A stretch of 5,175 nt of DNA, from IMG/VR virus record IMGVR_UViG_3300025880_000004. One strand, written 5' to 3'. Below the pieces are notes generated by a model that made no database searches, was not told where the DNA came from, and saw nothing but the letters and a program-made list of their open reading frames with translations. The translations under genes were made by a program, and so were the position numbers. Shown piece by piece: positions 1 through 5,169 of this stretch (its first letter is position 1; each line of letters opens with the position of its first letter). Source of the stretch: a virus.

Positions 1-121
1 CAAACGTGATGCTAAAGGCAAAATAACTAAGAGTAAAGATGAGCCAAAAGTAGTACAGTTAAAAGTGGATAATAAAGATAGCGGAGCTAAGCCAACAGAA
101 GGTACAGCAGAAGCTAAATAA
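1..121 (+). CDS. Partial CDS: the last 39 codons plus stop of the 118-aa VP3-like ORF. This is a duplicate of 5049..5169 created by the terminal redundancy, not a separate gene.
   Basis: Reading from position 2 gives KRDAKGKITKSKDEPKVVQLKVDNKDSGAKPTEGTAEAK and then TAA at 119..121. This is identical to the C-terminus of ORF 4813..5169. Confidence 0.85.
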   Translation, partial: KRDAKGKITKSKDEPKVVQLKVDNKDSGAKPTEGTAEAK

Positions 122-127
122 GAAATA
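1..127. repeat. Terminal redundancy, copy 1 (identical to 5049..5175). It marks a circular 5,048-nt genome.
   Basis: Base-by-base comparison gives 1..127 = 5049..5175, 127/127 identical. The repeat runs from inside a CDS into the downstream spacer, as expected when a circular contig is read past its start. Confidence 0.97.
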
Positions 128-172
128 TGGGGGAGTTCAGAAGTCTGGGTCCCCCCTATTTTGATAAGAGTG
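119..172 (+). repeat. GC-clamp hairpin element, copy A (intergenic, starts at the VP3-like stop codon).
   Basis: Left arm TAAGAAATATGGGGG (119..133) matches TAAGAAAAATGGGGG (1106..1120) at 14/15. Right arm TCCCCCCTATT (150..160) matches 1126..1136 at 11/11, and GATAAGAG (163..170) matches 1140..1147 at 8/8. The central loops differ. As far as I can see by eye, these two elements carry the only G-runs of 5 or more and the only C-runs of 5 or more in the window. Confidence 0.85.
129..162 (+). terminator. Candidate intrinsic terminator or ssDNA hairpin downstream of the VP1 / VP3-like gene pair.
   Basis: GGGGGA (129..134) pairs with TCCCCC (150..155). An inner stem CAG (138..140) / CTG (145..147) can be extended by T-G wobbles. 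The stem is followed by C-TATTTT (156..162). It lies 8 nt after the TAA at 119..121. Confidence 0.5.
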
Positions 173-260
173 GTACGCATCTGTTCTTATATATCAAGGA
201 AATAAGGTCGCTTTAAAAAAGCGCGAAAAAAGAGAAATATGATAAATGTGATACTAGGAT

Positions 261-281
261 TAATAATAATAATAATAATAG
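261..281. repeat. Trinucleotide microsatellite (TAA)x6 followed by TAG, 14 nt upstream of the VP2 start.
   Basis: ttaataataataataataatag is read directly. It gives seven consecutive stop codons in one frame and lies in the spacer between hairpin A and the ATG at 295. Confidence 0.95.
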
Positions 282-294
282 AAAATATAGAAAT

Positions 295-1056
295 ATGAGT
301 TTACTGGGAATAGGAACAACGATAGCTGGAGCAGCATACAATGAGTATGGAAATCAAAGGCAAAATAGACAAGATAGAACAAATGCAATGATGCAATATC
401 AAAATCAACGAAAGTTGAATCAACAAGGAAATAGATTGCAAATGGATATGTGGAATAAAACAAATTATGGAGCACAAGTGGACCATATGAAAGAAGCTGG
501 ATTAAATCCAGCATTAATGTATGGAAGTGCAGGGCAAGGTGGAACAACAGGAAGTCAAGGTGGTGGAAGTGCAACAAAAGCACAAGCGCCAAAAGCGCCA
601 GTAATGGATATGAGTAATATGTTACTAGATGCACAAATTAAAGCAATGGAAGCTAAAGCAAATAGTGATAATGCAAATGCAGAAGCAACAAGAGGATACC
701 AAGCAAAAGAATCAGGTGCAAGAACAACTGAGTCAGGTGCAAGAACAAGAGGAATAGAAGAAAGTATTAATAAAACAATAGCAGAAGTAGATAACTTATC
801 GCAGGCGAAAAAGAATATGATAGCGTCAGAAAAATTAACAGTGACGCAAAATGAAAAAGAAGAAATCAATAGAGATATAGCAAAACAAAATAGAAAATTC
901 TATGAAAATAATGATTTATCAGAAGGTGATTATGGATTGATAAAAGCATTAAAAAGAGCTGGAGTCGATTTGTATAGAGCAATACAATTCGTAATATACT
1001 CGACACCAGAAGAAGCAAAAGAAGTAATAGAGTTCAAAAAAGGATTAGACCAGTAA
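295..1056 (+). CDS. VP2: DNA pilot / minor capsid protein (VP2, functional analogue of phiX174 H).
   Basis: 253-aa ORF. It has a Q/N/R-rich N-terminal part followed by HMKEAGLNPALMYG (AGLNPALMYG at nt 496..525), a motif I recognise as the hallmark of Microviridae VP2/H-like pilot proteins. After that come a Gly/Ser/Thr-rich linker and a long charged, helix-prone region. It sits immediately upstream of rep. First in-frame ATG; frame open upstream to the TAA at 214..216. Confidence 0.8.
   Translation: MSLLGIGTTIAGAAYNEYGNQRQNRQDRTNAMMQYQNQRKLNQQGNRLQMDMWNKTNYGAQVDHMKEAGLNPALMYGSAGQGGTTGSQGGGSATKAQAPKAPVMDMSNMLLDAQIKAMEAKANSDNANAEATRGYQAKESGARTTESGARTRGIEESINKTIAEVDNLSQAKKNMIASEKLTVTQNEKEEINRDIAKQNRKFYENNDLSEGDYGLIKALKRAGVDLYRAIQFVIYSTPEEAKEVIEFKKGLDQ
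709..750 (+). repeat. In-frame 21-nt tandem duplication inside VP2 (ESGARTT / ESGARTR).
   Basis: gaatcaggtgcaagaacaact (709..729) versus gagtcaggtgcaagaacaaga (730..750): 18/21 identical, with a 16-nt perfect core tcaggtgcaagaacaa at 712..727 and 733..748. Confidence 0.95.
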
Positions 1057-1058
1057 AG

Positions 1059-2033
1059 ATGTGTTTGTATCCAAGATTGATACGAAACAGGAAGTACACT
1101 AAAAATAAGAAAAATGGGGGGGTCATCCCCCCTATTAGTGATAAGAGAGTGTTAATGGTGCCTGTAGGGTGTGGGAAATGTATAGAGTGCAAAAAGCAGA
1201 AAGCCAGAAACTGGCAAGTAAGACTGCAAGAAGATATTCGCGTTAACAAAAATGCTAAGTTTGTAACTTACACATTTTCGGAACACGAGTTACAAAAATT
1301 AGATAACGAGATAAAAGGATTAAGTGGATATGATAGAGATAATGAAATATGCAGATTAGCAGTAAGAAGATATACGGAAAGATGGAGAAAAAAATATGGA
1401 AGAACGTTGAGACATTGGTTAGTGACAGAATTGGGACACCAGAACACAGAAAGAGTGCATATGCATGGTATTGTGTGGACAGACGAAGTGAAGGATATAA
1501 AAGAGATATGGAAATATGGAAATATATGGATTGGGGAATATGTGAGTGCGAAAACGATAAATTATATCGTGAAGTATGTGAACAAGGTAGATGAAAGTCA
1601 TAAGACGTATAATAGTAAGATATTTACGAGTCAAGGTATAGGAAGTGAATATGTAAATAGACGAGATAGTGAGCGTAATAAGTATAAGAAGGAGAAAACG
1701 ATAGAAACGTATAAAACACGCGAGGGTGTAGAGTTAGCTCTACCAGTGTATTATAGAAACAAAATCTATAACGAAGAGCAAAGAGAAGCTCTCTGGTTAG
1801 AAAAATTAGATAAGGAAGAGCGATATGTGTGTGGTGTGAAAGTGGATATAAGTAAAGGTGAAGAAGAGTATTATAAGCTATTAGAAATGATGAGACAAAA
1901 GAATAAAAGATTAGGATATGGTGATGATGCAAAAAATTGGGAGCTTAAAAGATATGAAAATGAAAGGCGTAACTTAAAAAAGTTAGAAAGATTGGAAAAG
2001 CTATATGGGGTAGGGCAGGAAAAAGTTGCGTAA
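1059..2033 (+). CDS. VP4: Rolling-circle replication initiator protein (VP4; HUH endonuclease, phiX174 gene A analogue).
   Basis: 324-aa ORF that starts MCLYPRLIRN, the MCxxP start typical of microvirus VP4. It has the CGKCIEC cysteine motif (nt 1170..1190), RCR motif I FVTYTFS (1260..1280), the HUH motif RVHMHGIVW (HMH at 1458..1466) and the two-tyrosine motif III YIVKYVNK (1563..1586; Y169 and Y173). The start lies 2 nt after the VP2 stop. Confidence 0.93.
   Translation: MCLYPRLIRNRKYTKNKKNGGVIPPISDKRVLMVPVGCGKCIECKKQKARNWQVRLQEDIRVNKNAKFVTYTFSEHELQKLDNEIKGLSGYDRDNEICRLAVRRYTERWRKKYGRTLRHWLVTELGHQNTERVHMHGIVWTDEVKDIKEIWKYGNIWIGEYVSAKTINYIVKYVNKVDESHKTYNSKIFTSQGIGSEYVNRRDSERNKYKKEKTIETYKTREGVELALPVYYRNKIYNEEQREALWLEKLDKEERYVCGVKVDISKGEEEYYKLLEMMRQKNKRLGYGDDAKNWELKRYENERRNLKKLERLEKLYGVGQEKVA
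1106..1151 (+). repeat. GC-clamp hairpin element, copy B, embedded in the 5' end of the rep (VP4) coding sequence.
   Basis: G-run 1116..1122 and C-run 1127..1132 form a 6-bp G:C stem with loop TCAT. The flanks match copy A (see 119..172). It encodes KNKKNGGVIPPISDKRV in the variable segment between the MCxxP start and the CxxCxxC motif. Confidence 0.85.
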
Positions 2034-2174
2034 TTAAAAAAAAGTAGTATATTAGTAAAATAAAACGAGGAAACAGGGGAAATCGTAATAAAAGTGTCAG
2101 CCCTATAAATCGGGACAGTGTAAAATGGGGCACCGAGGAACCCTGTGTAACCTCAAAAAAAACCAAAAGTTTAC

Positions 2175-2190
2175 CAGGTGACGTAACCTG
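2175..2190. repeat. 16-nt near-palindrome CAGGT-G-ACGT-A-ACCTG.
   Basis: The reverse complement differs at only one symmetric pair of positions (2180 and 2185), so 14/16 positions are palindromic. The centre is ACGT, and the right half contains the second GTAACCT copy. Confidence 0.85.
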
Positions 2191-2225
2191 TTAAACATAG
2201 TATAAATTATAGGACAAATAAAAAA

Positions 2226-2242
2226 TGTTACAATTTGTAACA
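2226..2242. repeat. Perfect 17-nt palindrome TGTTACAA-T-TTGTAACA (8-bp arms, 1-nt spacer). Operator-like or hairpin-forming.
   Basis: Read directly. ATTTGTAAC (2233..2241) is repeated in direct orientation 13 nt downstream at 2246..2254. Confidence 0.9.
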
Positions 2243-2263
2243 GATATTTGTAACCTATATAAT
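2235..2263 (+). promoter_or_regulatory. Sigma70-like promoter candidate: -35 TTGTAA (2235..2240), 17-nt spacer, -10 TATAAT (2258..2263).
   Basis: The -10 hexamer is perfect, the -35 matches TTGACA at 4/6, and the spacing is canonical. The -35 lies inside the right arm of the palindrome. Two caveats apply. The predicted start would lie only a few nt before the ATG at 2274. Also, this consensus would not apply if the host is a Bacteroidota. Confidence 0.3.
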
Positions 2264-2273
2264 ATTAAGTAAG

Positions 2274-2540: not shown

Positions 2541-2769
2541 TCAAACAATTACTAGAAAGGAAATAAAAGATAGTCCTTTTCATGTAATAACAATAGACGG
2601 AGAAAGCTTCGGTGTGATGGGAGATTATAGACTGACGGAAAAATCAGCAGATGAAAGAGAAGTAATCGAAGAATTAGAAAAAATTACGTGGAACAGAATA
2701 GTACAAGTAGTAATGCTATTAGAAGAAGTAAGAACAAAAATTAATAATAAAATAAAAGAACAAGTATGA
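2467..2769 (+). CDS. Hypothetical protein, up to 100 aa. The start is uncertain (alternative in-frame ATG at 2617). It appears translationally coupled to VP1.
   Basis: Its stop TGA (2767..2769) overlaps the VP1 ATG (2766..2768) as ATGA. The C-terminal half (EREVIEELEKITWNRIVQVVMLLEEVRTKINNKIKEQV) looks helical. I recognise no motif. Confidence 0.5.
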   Translation: MEKSKLKQLQPNAKKVNNKDSGDGNQTITRKEIKDSPFHVITIDGESFGVMGDYRLTEKSADEREVIEELEKITWNRIVQVVMLLEEVRTKINNKIKEQV

Positions 2770-4802
2770 AAACAGAAATAGGCGGAGATAGATTAGGCTC
2801 CGGAAATAAACAAGAAGTAAGTCTAAGAAATTATGAAAGATCGAGTCACGATCTAGGATATATATGGAGAAGTAGTATGGCAAGTGGAACGTTAGTACCG
2901 TTCCTTAGTGAAGTAGGGCTACCAGGAGATAGCTTTGATATAGACTTAGACGTAGATGTAAAAACGTTACCAACAGTAGGACCGTTATTTGGAAGTTATA
3001 AAGTGCAGTTAGACGTGTTTCAATGTCCAGTAAGATTATACAATGGAAAATTACATATGAATATGCTAAATATAGGTATGGATATGAGTCAAATACTATT
3101 ACCACAAATTCAACAAATAGCAAAATATGAAGTAAATGAGGGAGATAATTCACAAATAAACAGTAGTAGTATATATAGTTATCTAAACCAAAGAGGGTTA
3201 GGAAGAACACCAGGAGGAGGAGAAGGAGCAGTAGTAAGATATTTTAATGCAATACCCTATCTGGGATATTGGGATATATATAAAAATTACTATGCGAATA
3301 AACAAGAAGAAAGAGGATTTGTAGTACATGCAGAAGATAGTAATGCATTTAAAGTATTAAGTGCAGATGTAATAACAACAAATAGTCAAGGAACATTAAC
3401 AGGACTAAGTCCATATAGTGTAGAAGGAGCAGGATATGCAACAGTAGATACGAGTTTAACAACGGCGTATGCAGTAGAATTAGTCGTATATGTAAAAAGT
3501 GGAGATGTAGTAGAAGGATTACCATTAGCAGAAAATGTAAAAGTAAAAATAGGAGGTGGTGTAGAAACATTTGCAATAGATGAGTTTGATGAAAATACGG
3601 TAGGTGGAAATATAAATGGAAGTTATGCAATAACATTTAGAAGATATAATGGAGTAAGAGCAGCTTCACAAAGCTGGCAAGTAGCACAAACAGAAGTATT
3701 AAATGATATACCAGATGGACAAGGATTACCACAATTAGTGGAATTTCCGTTAGATAATATAGATGATATGAGAATGGATATATTAGAAGCAGTAAGAGAT
3801 ACGACGGCGTTTGTAATAGATAAAAATAGTGCAAGTCCATACGGATTAGGACTAGGGTATGCAGGATTAGAAACAGAAAATAAATTTTACAAATTAGCAA
3901 GTCAAGAAGGATTAGGAATAAAAACATATCAAAGTGATTTATTCAATAACTGGATAAGTACAGAATGGATTGATGGAAGTAATGGAATTAATGAGGTAAC
4001 GGCAGTAAGTACAGCGGGTGATGAGTTTACGATAGATAGTTTAAACTTAGCAAATAAAGTGTACAATATGTTAAATAGAATTGCGATAAGTGGTGGAAGT
4101 TATGATGACTGGTTAGATGCAGTATATACGCATGAAAGAGCAAAAAGTTGTGAAAACCCTATTTATCATGGAAGTTTGATAAAAGAACTAGGATTCGAAG
4201 AGGTAGTAAGTTTAAGTGATGTAAACGATGTAAATGGAGAAGCGCAACCGTTAGGAACATTAGCGGGACGTGGAAGATTGACTGGAAAAAATAAAGGAGG
4301 TAAAATTAAAATTAAAGTAGATGAGCCGAGTTATATAATCGGGTTAGTAAGCTTAACGCCAAGAATAGACTATAGTCAAGGGAACAAATGGGATACAAAT
4401 CTAAAAACAATGAATGATTTGCATAAACCAGCGTTAGACGCAATAGGATATCAAGACTTAATCACAGACCAAATGGCTTGGTTTGATACATCTACAGACA
4501 CAAGCGGAGTAGTAACATATAACACAGCAGGTAAACAACCAGCTTGGATTAACTATATGACAAATGTAAATCAAACAAGAGGAAACTTTGCAGTAGAAGG
4601 AGATAGTATGTTTATGACATTAAACAGAAGATATGAACAGGGAAGTAGTGGAATCGAAGATTTAACAACGTATGTAGACCCAAGCAAGTATAATGAAATA
4701 TTTGCGCAAACAGATAAAAGTGCACAAAATTTCTGGGTACAGATAAGTAATAAGATACTAGCTAGAAGAAAAATGAGTGCGAAAGTAATACCTAACCTAT
4801 AA
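2766..4802 (+). CDS. VP1: Major capsid protein (VP1; phiX174 F-protein family).
   Basis: 678-aa ORF, the longest in the window. Several blocks match, from memory, the conserved blocks of Microviridae major capsid proteins: SHDLGYIWRSSMASGTLVPFLSEVGLPGDSF..TLPTVGPLFGSYKVQLDVFQCPVRLYN (N-terminus), AIPYLGYWDIYKNYYAN, ISGGSYDDWLDAVY, PLGTLAGRG, EPSYIIGLVSLTPRIDYSQG and the C-terminal ..ILARRKMS. The N-terminal GGDRLGSGNKQEVSLRNYERSSHDL pattern reminds me specifically of Alpavirinae VP1. Confidence 0.95.
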   Translation: MKTEIGGDRLGSGNKQEVSLRNYERSSHDLGYIWRSSMASGTLVPFLSEVGLPGDSFDIDLDVDVKTLPTVGPLFGSYKVQLDVFQCPVRLYNGKLHMNMLNIGMDMSQILLPQIQQIAKYEVNEGDNSQINSSSIYSYLNQRGLGRTPGGGEGAVVRYFNAIPYLGYWDIYKNYYANKQEERGFVVHAEDSNAFKVLSADVITTNSQGTLTGLSPYSVEGAGYATVDTSLTTAYAVELVVYVKSGDVVEGLPLAENVKVKIGGGVETFAIDEFDENTVGGNINGSYAITFRRYNGVRAASQSWQVAQTEVLNDIPDGQGLPQLVEFPLDNIDDMRMDILEAVRDTTAFVIDKNSASPYGLGLGYAGLETENKFYKLASQEGLGIKTYQSDLFNNWISTEWIDGSNGINEVTAVSTAGDEFTIDSLNLANKVYNMLNRIAISGGSYDDWLDAVYTHERAKSCENPIYHGSLIKELGFEEVVSLSDVNDVNGEAQPLGTLAGRGRLTGKNKGGKIKIKVDEPSYIIGLVSLTPRIDYSQGNKWDTNLKTMNDLHKPALDAIGYQDLITDQMAWFDTSTDTSGVVTYNTAGKQPAWINYMTNVNQTRGNFAVEGDSMFMTLNRRYEQGSSGIEDLTTYVDPSKYNEIFAQTDKSAQNFWVQISNKILARRKMSAKVIPNL

Positions 4803-4812
4803 AGAAAAAGAT

Positions 4813-5169
4813 ATGTATAAATATAGAAAACCGAGTAAAAGTACTTTAACAAGTGTAGAATGTGTTGAAGGTGAACCAATAGAACACAAGATTGAGAGAA
4901 TTGTGAGTAACAAAGAGCCAATAAGTGATGGGGCGCCAGAGATATTTACGGAACGTAAAGAAGGTGTAAAAAGTGCATATAATATCCGAACGGATAGATG
5001 GGAAATTGCGACAGACGCAATGAGTAAGGTAGAAGGAAGTATCCAAGCCAAACGTGATGCTAAAGGCAAAATAACTAAGAGTAAAGATGAGCCAAAAGTA
5101 GTACAGTTAAAAGTGGATAATAAAGATAGCGGAGCTAAGCCAACAGAAGGTACAGCAGAAGCTAAATAA
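4813..5169 (+). CDS. Small conserved-looking structural or scaffolding-type protein (VP3-like), 118 aa.
   Basis: It starts 10 nt after the VP1 stop and shares the codon style of the confident genes. The core EPISDGAPEIFTERKEGVKSAYNIRTDRWEIATDAM (nt 4915..5022) resembles a motif (..YTERKDGV..YDIRTDR..IA..AM) that I recall from small proteins encoded next to VP1 in gut Microviridae. The C-terminal 40 aa are Lys-rich and probably disordered. The function assignment is an inference. Confidence 0.7.
   Translation: MYKYRKPSKSTLTSVECVEGEPIEHKIERIVSNKEPISDGAPEIFTERKEGVKSAYNIRTDRWEIATDAMSKVEGSIQAKRDAKGKITKSKDEPKVVQLKVDNKDSGAKPTEGTAEAK

Follow-up and report, generated by a model that had tools for sequence, protein, structure and literature searches.

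Plus-strand hairpins at gene boundaries of a microvirus genome, one of them embedded in the rep reading frame

Results

Gene Order and Two G/C-Clamped Hairpins

We analyzed a 5,175-nucleotide stretch of viral DNA (IMG/VR record IMGVR_UViG_3300025880_000004; hereafter the window), which represents a 5048-nt circular microvirus genome read with 127 nt of terminal redundancy. Because of this redundancy, the stop codon of orf118 is also found at 119–121 (Table 1). An earlier note, made from the sequence alone, had placed the stop codon of a VP3-like gene at position 119; the stop lies where it was placed, but the VP3-like label was not borne out, because orf118 matched no Pfam or PHROG family. Further along lie a pilot protein gene and rep, whose Pfam and PHROG matches identify Rep as an HUH-type initiator. 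The host is probably a member of the Bacteroidota rather than E. coli. The Bacteroidota promoter motif TAnnTTTG was not found in the non-coding regions, a sigma-70 promoter scan performed at chance level (17 sites found, 20.5 expected), and no Rfam family matched either strand at thresholds up to E = 5.

Runs of five or more G or C residues occur at only four places in the whole window (129–133, 151–156, 1116–1122, and 1127–1132), and they lie in two segments that are both predicted to fold, as the earlier note had proposed. In the first, copy A, an outer clamp pairs GGGGGA (129–134) with TCCCCC (150–155) around an inner CAG/CTG stem (136–140 with 145–149) and an AAGT loop; its predicted folding energy is −8.0 kcal/mol as DNA (z = −2.2) and −20 as RNA (z = −3.1 relative to shuffled sequences). 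The second, copy B, has a 10-bp stem (AATGGGGGGG/CCCCCCTATT) and a TCAT loop, with corresponding values of −8.9 (z = −2.8) and −18.1 (z = −2.9). Both copies therefore provide the stable, G+C-rich stem-loop in the sense transcript that is looked for in an intrinsic terminator. A segment after rep that had been proposed as a third copy folded no better than shuffled sequences (z = +1.2 as DNA and +0.5 as RNA).

Table 1. Features of the window discussed in the text
Feature	Position	Strand	Basis and remarks
Copy A 5' flank, AAATAAGAAATAT	116..128	+	Includes orf118 stop codon TAA (119–121); resembles copy B 5' flank
Copy A hairpin	129..155	+	Predicted folds; relatives hold a hairpin of variable sequence at the same position
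Copy A T-rich tail, CTATTTTGAT	156..165	+	Terminator-like; T counts in tails of after-orf118 hairpins
GATAAGAG block at copy A	163..170	+	Common with copy B; in relatives a semi-conserved lead-in to CE1
CE1, GGTACGCATCTGTTCTTATATATCAAG	172..198	+	27-nt deeply conserved non-coding block directly 3' of copy A; relatives and prophages
CE2, CGCTTTAAAAAAGCGCGAAA	209..228	+	Conserved block with small hairpin; comparison with relatives
Pilot protein gene (VP2/H-like)	295..1056	+	PHROG pilot-protein families; stop codon 2 nt before rep ATG
rep, replication initiator gene	1059..2033	+	Pfam PF23343 and PHROG 942
Copy B 5' flank	1103..1112	+	Codons for conserved K-N-K-K
Copy B hairpin	1113..1136	+	rep codons 19–26 (N-G-G-V-I-P-P-I); folds, covariation, codon and strand bias, prophages
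GATAAGAG at copy B	1140..1147	+	Codons for conserved D-K-R
Site B' (rep nt 83–118)	1141..1176	+	Unstructured in the window; substitute hairpin in lineages without copy B
Proposed third copy	2125..2143	+	Rejected; folding z-scores positive
orf118 (118 aa)	4813..5169	+	Conserved ORF after capsid gene, no family match; stop codon also at 119–121

Base Pairing in Copy B Has Shaped the rep Codons

Copy B is the stronger of the two elements. Its stem was kept in most of the approximately 100 relatives compared, whose Rep identities range from 100% to 47% and which include Bacteroidales prophages, and it covaries: across 67 distinct sequences the covariation score was 0.222, compared with 0.132 in shuffled alignments (0 of 500 reached the observed value), and every control in which the register was slid gave 0.117 or less. 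Pair 12/31, for example, was U-A in 31 sequences, C-G in 26, and U-G in 7, and pair 15/28 was G-C in 50 and C-G in 8. Amino acid changes were compensated across the stem, with Pro-to-Ala replacements accompanied by the rare GGC codon and Pro-to-Ser replacements by GGA. When substitutions were compared, synonymous changes to CCT, which keep a G.U pair, were seen, but changes to CCA or CCG never were. In some relatives (L003 and L085 among them), the codon phase in which the C arm is translated differs. The compensatory changes, G.U wobbles, shifted codons, and change of phase uphold the view that the signal resides in DNA or RNA and not in protein.

Codon usage in the stem was correspondingly skewed. 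Glycine was encoded by GGG at 90 of 119 stem positions (76%) but at only 181 of 1203 positions elsewhere in rep (15%); for proline, CCC accounted for 59 of 106 stem codons (56%) and 30 of 280 elsewhere (11%), and CCA for 5 of 106 and 146 of 280, respectively. The suppressed synonymous variation that had been expected at these codons was not found, as raw diversity was 0.65 in the stem versus 0.67 (P = 0.35). The constraint is thus visible as codon identity and covariation and not as lowered raw synonymous diversity, and copy B has dictated rep codons and even amino acids (Gly-Gly...Pro-Pro). Our search of the literature found no description of a hairpin within rep.

The plus strand was the more stable of the two in 56–59 of 68 copy B sequences. 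A consensus terminator scan called neither copy A nor copy B on the plus strand and flagged copy B on the minus strand only. We considered minus-strand terminators because of this call and the T-runs on that strand, and we ruled them out because G.U pairs and folding energies favor the plus strand. Beyond the full stem, the tail of copy B contains 1.6 T per 10 nt, which is the background level, and no canonical U-tract; the T residues beside the G/C clamp pair with the upstream A-run.

Hairpins of Variable Sequence Follow orf118 and VP1

Among relatives, intergenic hairpins begin at a median of 7 nt past the stop codon of VP1 or orf118, which is the gene 3'-end placement expected of intrinsic terminators. 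Their place is kept, and their sequence differs even between close relatives; replacement of the inner part of copy A between near-identical genomes indicates rapid local turnover. GNRA loops recur on different stems (12 of 35 distinct hairpins), mostly with A-T or G-C closing pairs. The plus strand was more stable in 16 of 20 after-orf118 hairpins and in 14 of 15 after-VP1 hairpins. The tails of the after-orf118 hairpins are T-rich (mean 4.4 T per 10 nt versus a genome background of 2.2), and in the window copy A, which lies 7 nt behind the final gene of the capsid block, is followed by CTATTTTGA. After-VP1 hairpins have A-rich rather than U-rich tails, with T at the background level (2.1 per 10 nt). 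We also examined a small ORF that spans copy A (127–216) and encodes PPxxDK, as Rep does; we rejected it because neither its ATG at 127 nor its frame is conserved among relatives.

The Likeness of Copies A and B Is Confined to One Sub-lineage

The blocks described as shared by the two regions were found: AAATAAGAAAnATGGGGG (116–133 and 1103–1120), TCCCCCCTATT (150–160 and 1126–1136), and GATAAGAG (163–170 and 1140–1147). Even without the G/C clamps, the similarity of the flanks had an empirical P of approximately 1e-4 relative to position pairs drawn at random from this genome; of 4652 other positions, not one matched the copy B flanks as well as copy A does. The description of the two as a duplicated element did not hold in the sense of a functional pair. 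The identity of the flanks is limited to the sub-lineage of the window, and in sister lineages the A flanks are kept and the B flanks have drifted. Nor does the A stem follow that of B, as genomes with GGCGGG/CCCGCC in copy B still have a GGGGG/CCCCC intergenic hairpin. We likewise rejected the idea that A and B evolve in concert within genomes, because the score was high only in the window's sub-lineage, and L008-type copies of A are closer to window-type B than to the B of the same genome. Each flank has a constraint of its own: the copy B flanks are codons for the N-K-K-N motif conserved in nearly all relatives' Rep and for D-K-R (with synonymous variants of GATAAGAG, such as GACAAAAGA and GATAAGCGG, in relatives), and the 3' flank of copy A belongs to the conserved block upstream of CE1. 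The likeness stems from an ancient local event (duplication or gene conversion) or is partly a coincidence of constrained sequences, and it is not needed for function.

The rep Hairpin Tracks the Pilot/rep Junction

Copy B lies about 57 nt past the stop codon of the pilot gene, so that it too is placed at a gene or transcription-unit 3' end, and its presence follows the junction of the two genes. Lineages that lost it usually have a substitute hairpin, B', about 30 nt downstream. Among 84 distinct rep 5' ends, 56 had only B, 14 only B', 11 both, and 3 neither (Fisher P = 6e-7, kinship ignored); control windows averaged −1.3 to −1.6 kcal/mol. The distance from the pilot stop codon to the rep ATG was −1 to +6 nt in 79 of 82 genomes. 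A hairpin within rep was present in 91 of 95 genomes in which the genes abut but in only 4 of 11 with a gap of at least 30 nt (Fisher P = 3.9e-6, kinship ignored). Hairpins were found within the gap itself in four relatives: L167, where the tail is T-rich; L127, where the hairpin starts at the stop codon and has a GCAA loop; L128; and L158. Two others (L041 and L042) have no junction hairpin in their gap of 53–63 nt, which encodes an Arg-rich mini-ORF. In a sample selected by CE1 and not by Rep, 9 of 31 genomes lacked a strong hairpin at B or B'. The hairpins do not mark the recombination breakpoints of a swapped pilot-gene cassette, which fall after CE2 (~240–300) and at the start of rep (~1056).

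CE1 Is the Sole Invariant Non-coding Block

CE1 was the only non-coding block that is invariant among relatives, and no consensus structure was predicted for CE1/CE2. On the strength of this sequence conservation, CE1 is a better candidate for the viral-strand origin than either hairpin. As a phiX174-like origin, the reverse complement of CE1 was rejected; the best scores were 22–24 against a null of 21 ± 2.2 (P = 0.12), and with these scores no significant match to the phiX174 origin was found in the window. A role for CE1 as an Xer/dif attachment site was also rejected. Dysgonomonas and Bacteroides prophages carry CE1 internally, with orf118 on one side and the pilot gene on the other; in a published study of such prophages, the att sites are at the ends of the provirus.

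Discussion

A Proposed Role of the Hairpins as Boundaries of the Plus-Sense Transcript

From the structures, their conservation and covariation, plus-strand polarity, codon bias, relocation, and link with gene junctions, we arrive at a reading to which we give about an even chance: the hairpins would be boundary elements of the plus-sense RNA, with copy A terminating transcription behind the capsid genes and copy B acting as a leaky stop where the pilot gene gives way to rep. Of the functions suggested in the earlier note, that of a terminator (A) and an attenuator (B) fits best, given the A-type hairpins 7 nt past a stop codon, their T-rich tails, and the way in which B tracks the junction. 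We infer that RNA rather than plus-strand DNA is the acting molecule and that the effect is termination or stabilization. Both hairpins would then act in the plus-sense transcript and set the amount of message for each block of genes. Copy A would serve as a Rho-independent terminator and as a stabilizer of the 3' end of the capsid-block message, and copy B would do the same job at the pilot/rep boundary. With no spacer between the abutting pilot stop codon and rep ATG, the hairpin would have come to occupy the earliest part of rep able to tolerate it, codons 19–26, where it would force Gly-Gly to be GGG GGG and Pro-Pro to be CCC CCT. Copy B may terminate transcription leakily, hold back 3' exonucleases, or do both; the pilot-protein message would outlast or outnumber the rep message, and Rep would be kept scarce.

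Several observations stand against these boundary functions. Neither copy B nor the after-VP1 hairpins have a canonical U-tract, which casts doubt on efficient intrinsic termination at those sites. Translation of rep through copy B would oppose folding of the hairpin. The lineage with the mini-ORF has no junction hairpin at all, and nearly a third of the CE1-selected genomes lack a strong one at B or B'. Plus-strand polarity, moreover, suits packaged plus-strand DNA equally well.

Alternative Explanations

This last point leads to the possibility, to which we assign a modest probability, that the site of action is the packaged plus-strand DNA, where the hairpins would let host enzymes prime the complementary strand (a minus-strand origin of the primosome or primase type) or be other single-strand replication signals, perhaps in addition to a role in RNA. 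All three hairpin classes show the plus-strand bias that a single-strand origin requires, and folding is strand-specific in the appropriate sense provided that virions contain the coding-sense strand, which we presume here from known Microviridae. That structure is kept while sequence and exact position are free is also what would be expected with structure-specific factors such as PriA. The T_F terminator hairpin of phiX174 doubles as a minus-strand origin/PriA site, and the same role has been proposed for conserved intergenic hairpins of other microvirus clades. Placement at exactly 7 nt past stop codons, however, is left unexplained, as are the link with the pilot/rep junction and the move into the spacer. 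At 6–12 bp the hairpins are shorter than known single-strand origins, and each genome has two or three of them, with differing sequences. The G.T pairs are long-lived in evolution and would be cheaper in RNA than in DNA, and the recurrence of GNRA loops, mostly on A-T or G-C closing pairs, also argues against action in DNA. A combined scheme seems to us rather improbable: the plus-strand signals would have a dual use, shaping transcripts while copy B (or its substitutes) provides a complementary-strand priming site in the rep frame of Bacteroidota-infecting microviruses and CE1 provides the viral-strand origin.

It is unlikely that copy B acts on translation, whether as a roadblock about 57 nt into rep that slows ribosomes and limits Rep or by promoting −1 frameshifting on the A-rich run just upstream. 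The position near the start of rep is conserved, the abutting pilot stop and rep start codons suggest translational coupling, and in many relatives the stem is immediately preceded by the heptamer A AAA AAC in frame. The heptamer is nonetheless restricted to some clades and is missing from that of the window; the window itself reads AAG AAA AAT, a sequence without slipperiness at the P site. With 0 nt, the spacer falls short of the usual 5–9 nt, and the −1 frame stops after 13 codons, so the window has neither the heptamer, the spacer, nor the productive −1 frame of programmed frameshifting. A roadblock would not account for hairpins that have shifted to a spacer ahead of the ATG, when there is one (L167 and L127), or for the similar hairpins after VP1 and orf118.

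The likeness of A and B might instead be a historical trace, in which about 50 nt of rep was duplicated or converted into the spacer, or be partly chance, with A an ordinary terminator and the structure of B incidental to its Gly-Gly/Pro-Pro codons. The restriction of flank identity to the window's sub-lineage agrees with this, as do the presence of GTCATCCCCCCTATT in both copy B and the copy A of L007 and L017 and the swapping of the inner part of copy A between near-identical genomes. As a whole we consider it quite unlikely: the incidental part is refuted by covariation, codon bias, compensated amino acid changes, and the substitute hairpin, and the duplication part is compatible with boundary hairpins, as it concerns origin and not function.

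That the hairpins are Rep recognition or nicking sites, with a viral-strand origin inside rep and another, related site past the structural genes, is very unlikely judging from the sequence comparisons, even though Rep is HUH-type, hairpins are common among HUH origins, gene A contains the phiX174 origin, and the window's two copies have common flanks: those flanks are lineage-specific, and among relatives loops and flanks vary freely beyond coding needs, so that neither copy has an invariant nick motif; the stem sequence of A is independent of that of B; the hairpin is not a single copy at a fixed position but in several lineages is lost, shifted by about 30 nt, or out of rep in the spacer; two active origins in direct orientation would give sub-genomic circles, as is general in rolling-circle replication; and CE1, adjoining copy A, is far better conserved, as sequence and not as structure, like the 30-nt phiX174 origin.

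Comparison with phiX174 and Other Microviruses

Boundary hairpins would have close precedents. In phiX174, leaky intrinsic terminators follow J, F, G, and H. T_J, T_F, and T_G block only 20%–40% of transcription; T_H, the strongest, separates pilot gene H from replication gene A; it resets transcription ahead of A, blocking 70%. By analogy, copy B would be the counterpart of T_H. Like T_H with its promoter pA, it is a hairpin at the junction of the pilot and replication genes, and it overlaps signals of the downstream gene (the 3' arm of T_H is the gene A ribosome-binding site). Unlike T_H, it lies inside the reading frame about 57 nt past the ATG and not in a spacer, has no clear U-tract, and constrains codons and amino acids; and, unlike T_H with pA, it has no promoter near it that was recognizable in scans of the window. 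Copy A and the after-VP1 hairpins resemble T_J, T_F, and T_G in that they follow structural genes within a few nucleotides of the stop codon, are plus-sense, and are fixed in place while varying in sequence. They differ in their G/C-run clamps and frequent GNRA loops, and in the A-rich tails of the after-VP1 class.

Because T_F overlaps the minus-strand origin/PriA site, one hairpin can serve RNA and DNA roles. The PriA site is likewise a plus-strand microvirus hairpin, recognized by structure in phiX174, but the phiX174 minus-strand origin is a longer hairpin region and lies in a spacer. Reekeekeeviruses and roodoodooviruses have conserved intergenic hairpins with compensatory substitutions between the capsid-side genes and rep, for which a role in replication was proposed. 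In contrast to copy B, these are intergenic and belong to unrelated clades, and no coding-embedded hairpin was reported there.

Implications

Few phages are as abundant in gut and marine samples as microviruses. To our knowledge, almost nothing is known outside phiX174 of how they control gene dosage or where their replication starts. Our results suggest that abutting genes have forced a regulatory hairpin like those of phiX174 into a reading frame and that it is re-created nearby when lost. For annotation, they carry the warning that the conserved N-G-G-x-I-P-P motif of Rep reflects, at least in part, a nucleic-acid constraint. They also yield three candidate cis-elements (copy A, copy B or B', and CE1/CE2) in a phage group with cultured lysogenic hosts, among them Dysgonomonas macrotermitis DSM 27370 and Dysgonomonas sp. 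521, which carry the related prophages L087 and L085. We know of no origin in the Bacteroidota-infecting microviruses; if the hairpins do have a dual use, the region that controls replication in this large uncultured phage group would be bracketed by copy A with CE1/CE2 on one side and copy B on the other.

The Window Contains Two G/C-Clamped Hairpins

Runs of five or more G or C residues are confined, in the whole window, to positions 129-133, 151-156, 1116-1122, and 1127-1132. An earlier note had described two G/C-clamped hairpins here, and this observation is correct. Copy A, which follows the 118-aa ORF orf118, pairs GGGGGA with TCCCCC around an inner stem, and copy B, which lies inside the replication initiator gene (rep, codons 19-26), folds as a 10-bp stem with the loop TCAT; shuffled sequences are less stable than either (z of -2.2 to -3.1). 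Their flanks are alike beyond chance even when the clamps are excluded (P ~1e-4 against random position pairs in the same genome), and none of 4652 other positions equaled this similarity. A third copy proposed at 2125-2143 showed no folding.

The note had also presented A and B as a duplicated element, but the two are not a pair. Within-genome similarity of A to B is high only in the sub-lineage of the window (41.5 in the window, 39 in L007, 39.5 in L017, and 36.5 in L018) and elsewhere is at background or at the level given by the clamps alone. Copy A of the L008 type is closer to window-type copy B than to its own copy B, and genomes with GGCGGG/CCCGCC in copy B retain GGGGG/CCCCC in the intergenic hairpin. 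The flanks of copy B are codons for the conserved residues N-K-K-N and D-K-R; on the 5' side, the flank of copy A includes the stop codon of orf118, and on the 3' side it leads into a conserved block (CE1). The sequence GTCATCCCCCCTATT is common to copy B and to copy A of L007 and L017. The extra identity may reflect an old duplication or gene conversion.

A Conserved, Covarying Structure Is Written into rep

Copy B is both conserved and covarying, and it is embedded in the rep coding sequence. We assembled relatives from GenBank (6), from IMG/VR (77, chosen through Rep), and from cellular loci (5), together with 44 further contigs chosen through CE1, and in most of them the segment encoding N-G-G-x-[IV]-P-P-[IV] makes the same hairpin. 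Across 67 distinct sequences the covariation score was 0.222, compared with 0.132 for shuffles (0 of 500 reached 0.222) and at most 0.117 when the register was slid. U-A (31), C-G (26), and U-G (7) alternate as the closing pair, and G-C (50) and C-G (8) alternate at one inner pair. Compensated changes include Pro to Ala (GCC), paired with the rare Gly codon GGC, and Pro to Ser (TCC), paired with GGA; L003 and L085 read the C arm in another codon phase. Codon choice in the stem differs from that in the rest of rep: GGG accounts for 76% versus 15% of Gly codons, and the shares of CCC and CCA are 56% versus 11% and 5% versus 52%, respectively. Suppressed synonymous variation, for which the note had proposed a check, was not found at copy B, where raw diversity is unreduced (0.65 versus 0.67). 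The constraint redirects and couples changes and does not freeze them.

The Hairpin Is Re-created at Nearby Sites

A substitute site, B', lies ~30 nt downstream of B over codons for K-R-V-L-x-V-P-V, where the rare codons CGG and CCC are used; it is unstructured in the window. A hairpin is present at B only in 56 of 84 distinct rep 5' ends, at B' only in 14, at both in 11, and at neither in 3; structure at one site is negatively correlated with structure at the other (Spearman -0.52, Fisher P = 6e-7). Control windows flanking B and B' were unstructured. Of the 44 contigs chosen through CE1, 31 gave a distinct rep 5' end: 12 have B, 10 have B' only, and 9 have neither, so the rep-internal hairpin is common but not universal.

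The pilot stop codon lies -1 to +6 nt from the rep ATG in 79 of 82 genomes. Among 106 distinct genomes, the rep-internal hairpin is present in 91 of the 95 in which the genes abut and in 4 of the 11 with a gap of at least 30 nt (Fisher P = 3.9e-6, uncorrected for phylogeny, with exceptions in several separate lineages). Several gap genomes place a stable hairpin in the gap instead of in rep: that of L167 (-17.4 kcal/mol) has a T-rich tail and lies 64 nt before the ATG, that of L127 (-15.5 kcal/mol) begins at the stop codon and has a GCAA loop, and L128 and L158 have one too. What is needed is a structure at a place, not a sequence. The junction in the lineage of L041, L042, L108, L144, and L146 has no hairpin; its gap holds an Arg-rich mini-ORF (MARHRRHRRRRRR*; L041 ~2176-2217, L042 ~2694-2738) that recalls the DNA-binding peptides J/VP8.

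Copy A Is One of Many Post-Gene Hairpins

Nearly all relatives have one or two intergenic G/C-clamped hairpins, located after orf118 (the window's clade), after the capsid gene VP1 (more distant clades), or, in a few, after both, and copy A is a member of this class. They begin a median of 7 nt past the stop codon, and their sequence is unconserved: L011, L013, and L019/L025 have very different hairpins in the same place. GNRA loops recur, capping 12 of the 35 distinct hairpins on stems that differ from one another. Against a background of 2.2 T per 10, tails are T-rich after orf118 (4.4) and not after VP1 (2.1) or copy B (1.6).

The inner part of copy A has itself been replaced (GGGGGAGTTCAGAAGTCTGGGTCCCCCC at window 125-154 versus GGGGGGTGTTTTGAGTAAGTCATCCCCCC at L007 4270-4297 and L017 2347-2374), with hundreds of flanking bases identical between the window and L007/L017, a pattern that points to very rapid turnover of this stretch or to switching of templates at the G/C clamps.

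The structures favor the plus strand. G.U pairs are frequent in copy B (23 and 15 sequences at two positions), and opposite G the sole synonymous Pro variant seen is CCT. Folding is more stable for the plus than for the minus strand in 56-59 of 68 copy B sequences, in 16 of 20 hairpins after orf118, and in 14 of 15 after VP1. Together these features rule out the minus-strand terminator suggested by a consensus scan.

Conserved Blocks CE1 and CE2

Next to copy A lie CE1 and CE2, of which the note makes no mention. Nearly all relatives, down to a Rep identity of 50%, retain them in the region separating orf118 from the pilot gene. They are the most conserved non-coding sequences of the group and are also present in prophages of Bacteroidales; 102 IMG/VR contigs carry the CE1 pattern exactly. 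No consensus fold was found for either block, and their conservation is at the level of sequence. CE1 has no significant similarity to the phiX174 origin. It is the leading candidate for a sequence-specific signal in replication or transcription, which makes it less likely that the hairpins are Rep sites; CE1/CE2 are candidates for a viral-strand origin or promoter.

CE1 supplies the 5' arm and loop of a hairpin of 12-16 bp in some lineages, with TTTTT directly after it; the window keeps only ~5 bp of this pairing. In the phiX174 record (L084), a small C4/G4 hairpin (CCCCGAAGGGG, 4329-4343) lies within 2 nt 3' of the 30-nt viral-strand origin.

Genome Organization and Hosts

The 5175 bases comprise a circular genome of 5048 nt (34% G+C) and a 127-nt terminal redundancy, which is why the orf118 stop codon also appears at 119-121. 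The plus strand carries every gene of the window; over the whole window it is 43.6% A, 22.4% T, 23.0% G, and 11.0% C, an extreme composition with strong A>T and G>C skews.

Coordinates of genes, hairpins, and conserved blocks (window unless a locus is named)
Feature	Position	Strand	Sequence or remark
Copy A	129-155	+	hairpin after orf118
CE1	172-198		GGTACGCATCTGTTCTTATATATCAAG; directly 3' of copy A
CE2	209-228		CGCTTTAAAAAAGCGCGAAA; 3' of CE1
Pilot protein gene	295-1056	+	PHROG pilot families
Replication initiator (rep)	1059-2033	+	Pfam PF23343, PHROG 942
Copy B	1113-1136	+	hairpin inside rep
Site B'	1141-1176	+	
Two small ORFs		+	
F-type major capsid protein	2766-4802	+	
orf118	4813-5169	+	conserved; no known family
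CE1-wrapping hairpin, L093	2153-2188		
CE1-wrapping hairpin, L098	910-945		
CE1-wrapping hairpin, L142	1300-1336		
CE1-wrapping hairpin, L167	2367-2401		
CE1-wrapping hairpin, L002	2430-2464		
CE1-wrapping hairpin, L006	2315-2347		

The nearest annotated records are uncultured Microviridae. Related prophages are found in Dysgonomonas, Bacteroides, and Paludibacteraceae genomes, and the hosts of the group are therefore probably Bacteroidota; the absence of Shine-Dalgarno sequences, which this phylum lacks, agrees with such hosts. The integrated prophages (L085-L088; the Bacteroides and Paludibacteraceae examples are MAGs) keep the order capsid-orf118-CE1-pilot-rep intact, and from this arrangement the attachment site is predicted to fall within the spacer that separates rep from the scaffold-side ORFs (window 2034-2273). 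CE1, being internal in the prophages, was rejected as the attachment site. A palindrome (GTTACAATTTGTAAC) and the repeated ATTTGTAAC at 2232-2262, in the long spacer 3' of rep, overlap the sequence most like a sigma-70 promoter (TTGTAA-17-TATAAT), and they could mark a promoter, operator, or attachment region.

Comparison of window 240-1056 with L007, L017, and L082 shows that the pilot gene behaves like an exchangeable cassette, its breakpoints lying 3' of CE2 and at the start codon of rep: rep and orf118 of L007 and L017 are 99-100% identical to those of the window, and the pilot protein just 52%. The capsid gene is mosaic too (76-91% identity). L069 and L071 carry head-to-head inverted duplications of the rep/pilot/orf118 region, probably assembly artifacts or replication intermediates.

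Discussion

In phiX174, leaky intrinsic terminators follow J, F, G, and H; the strongest, T_H, separates the pilot gene, H, from the replication gene, A, and resets transcription before A. The group described here resembles that design in having plus-sense, sequence-variable hairpins right after structural genes and one at the pilot/rep junction, the latter placed in rep or in the spacer according to whether a spacer is present. By this match in layout, copy A would be a terminator and 3' stabilizer of the capsid-side message, and copy B would be a counterpart of T_H embedded in rep, limiting the rep message relative to the pilot message. Given its weak U-tract, copy B may act by stabilizing the upstream message, or by pausing, rather than by efficient termination. 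The hairpins could also have a role in the packaged single strand, possibly alongside one in RNA; the phiX174 T_F hairpin, which is a PriA site as well as a terminator, offers a precedent for such a dual role.

Post-gene hairpins in microviruses are already known. In the literature we found no description of a conserved rep-embedded hairpin that shapes the gene's codons and amino acids and arises anew after loss.
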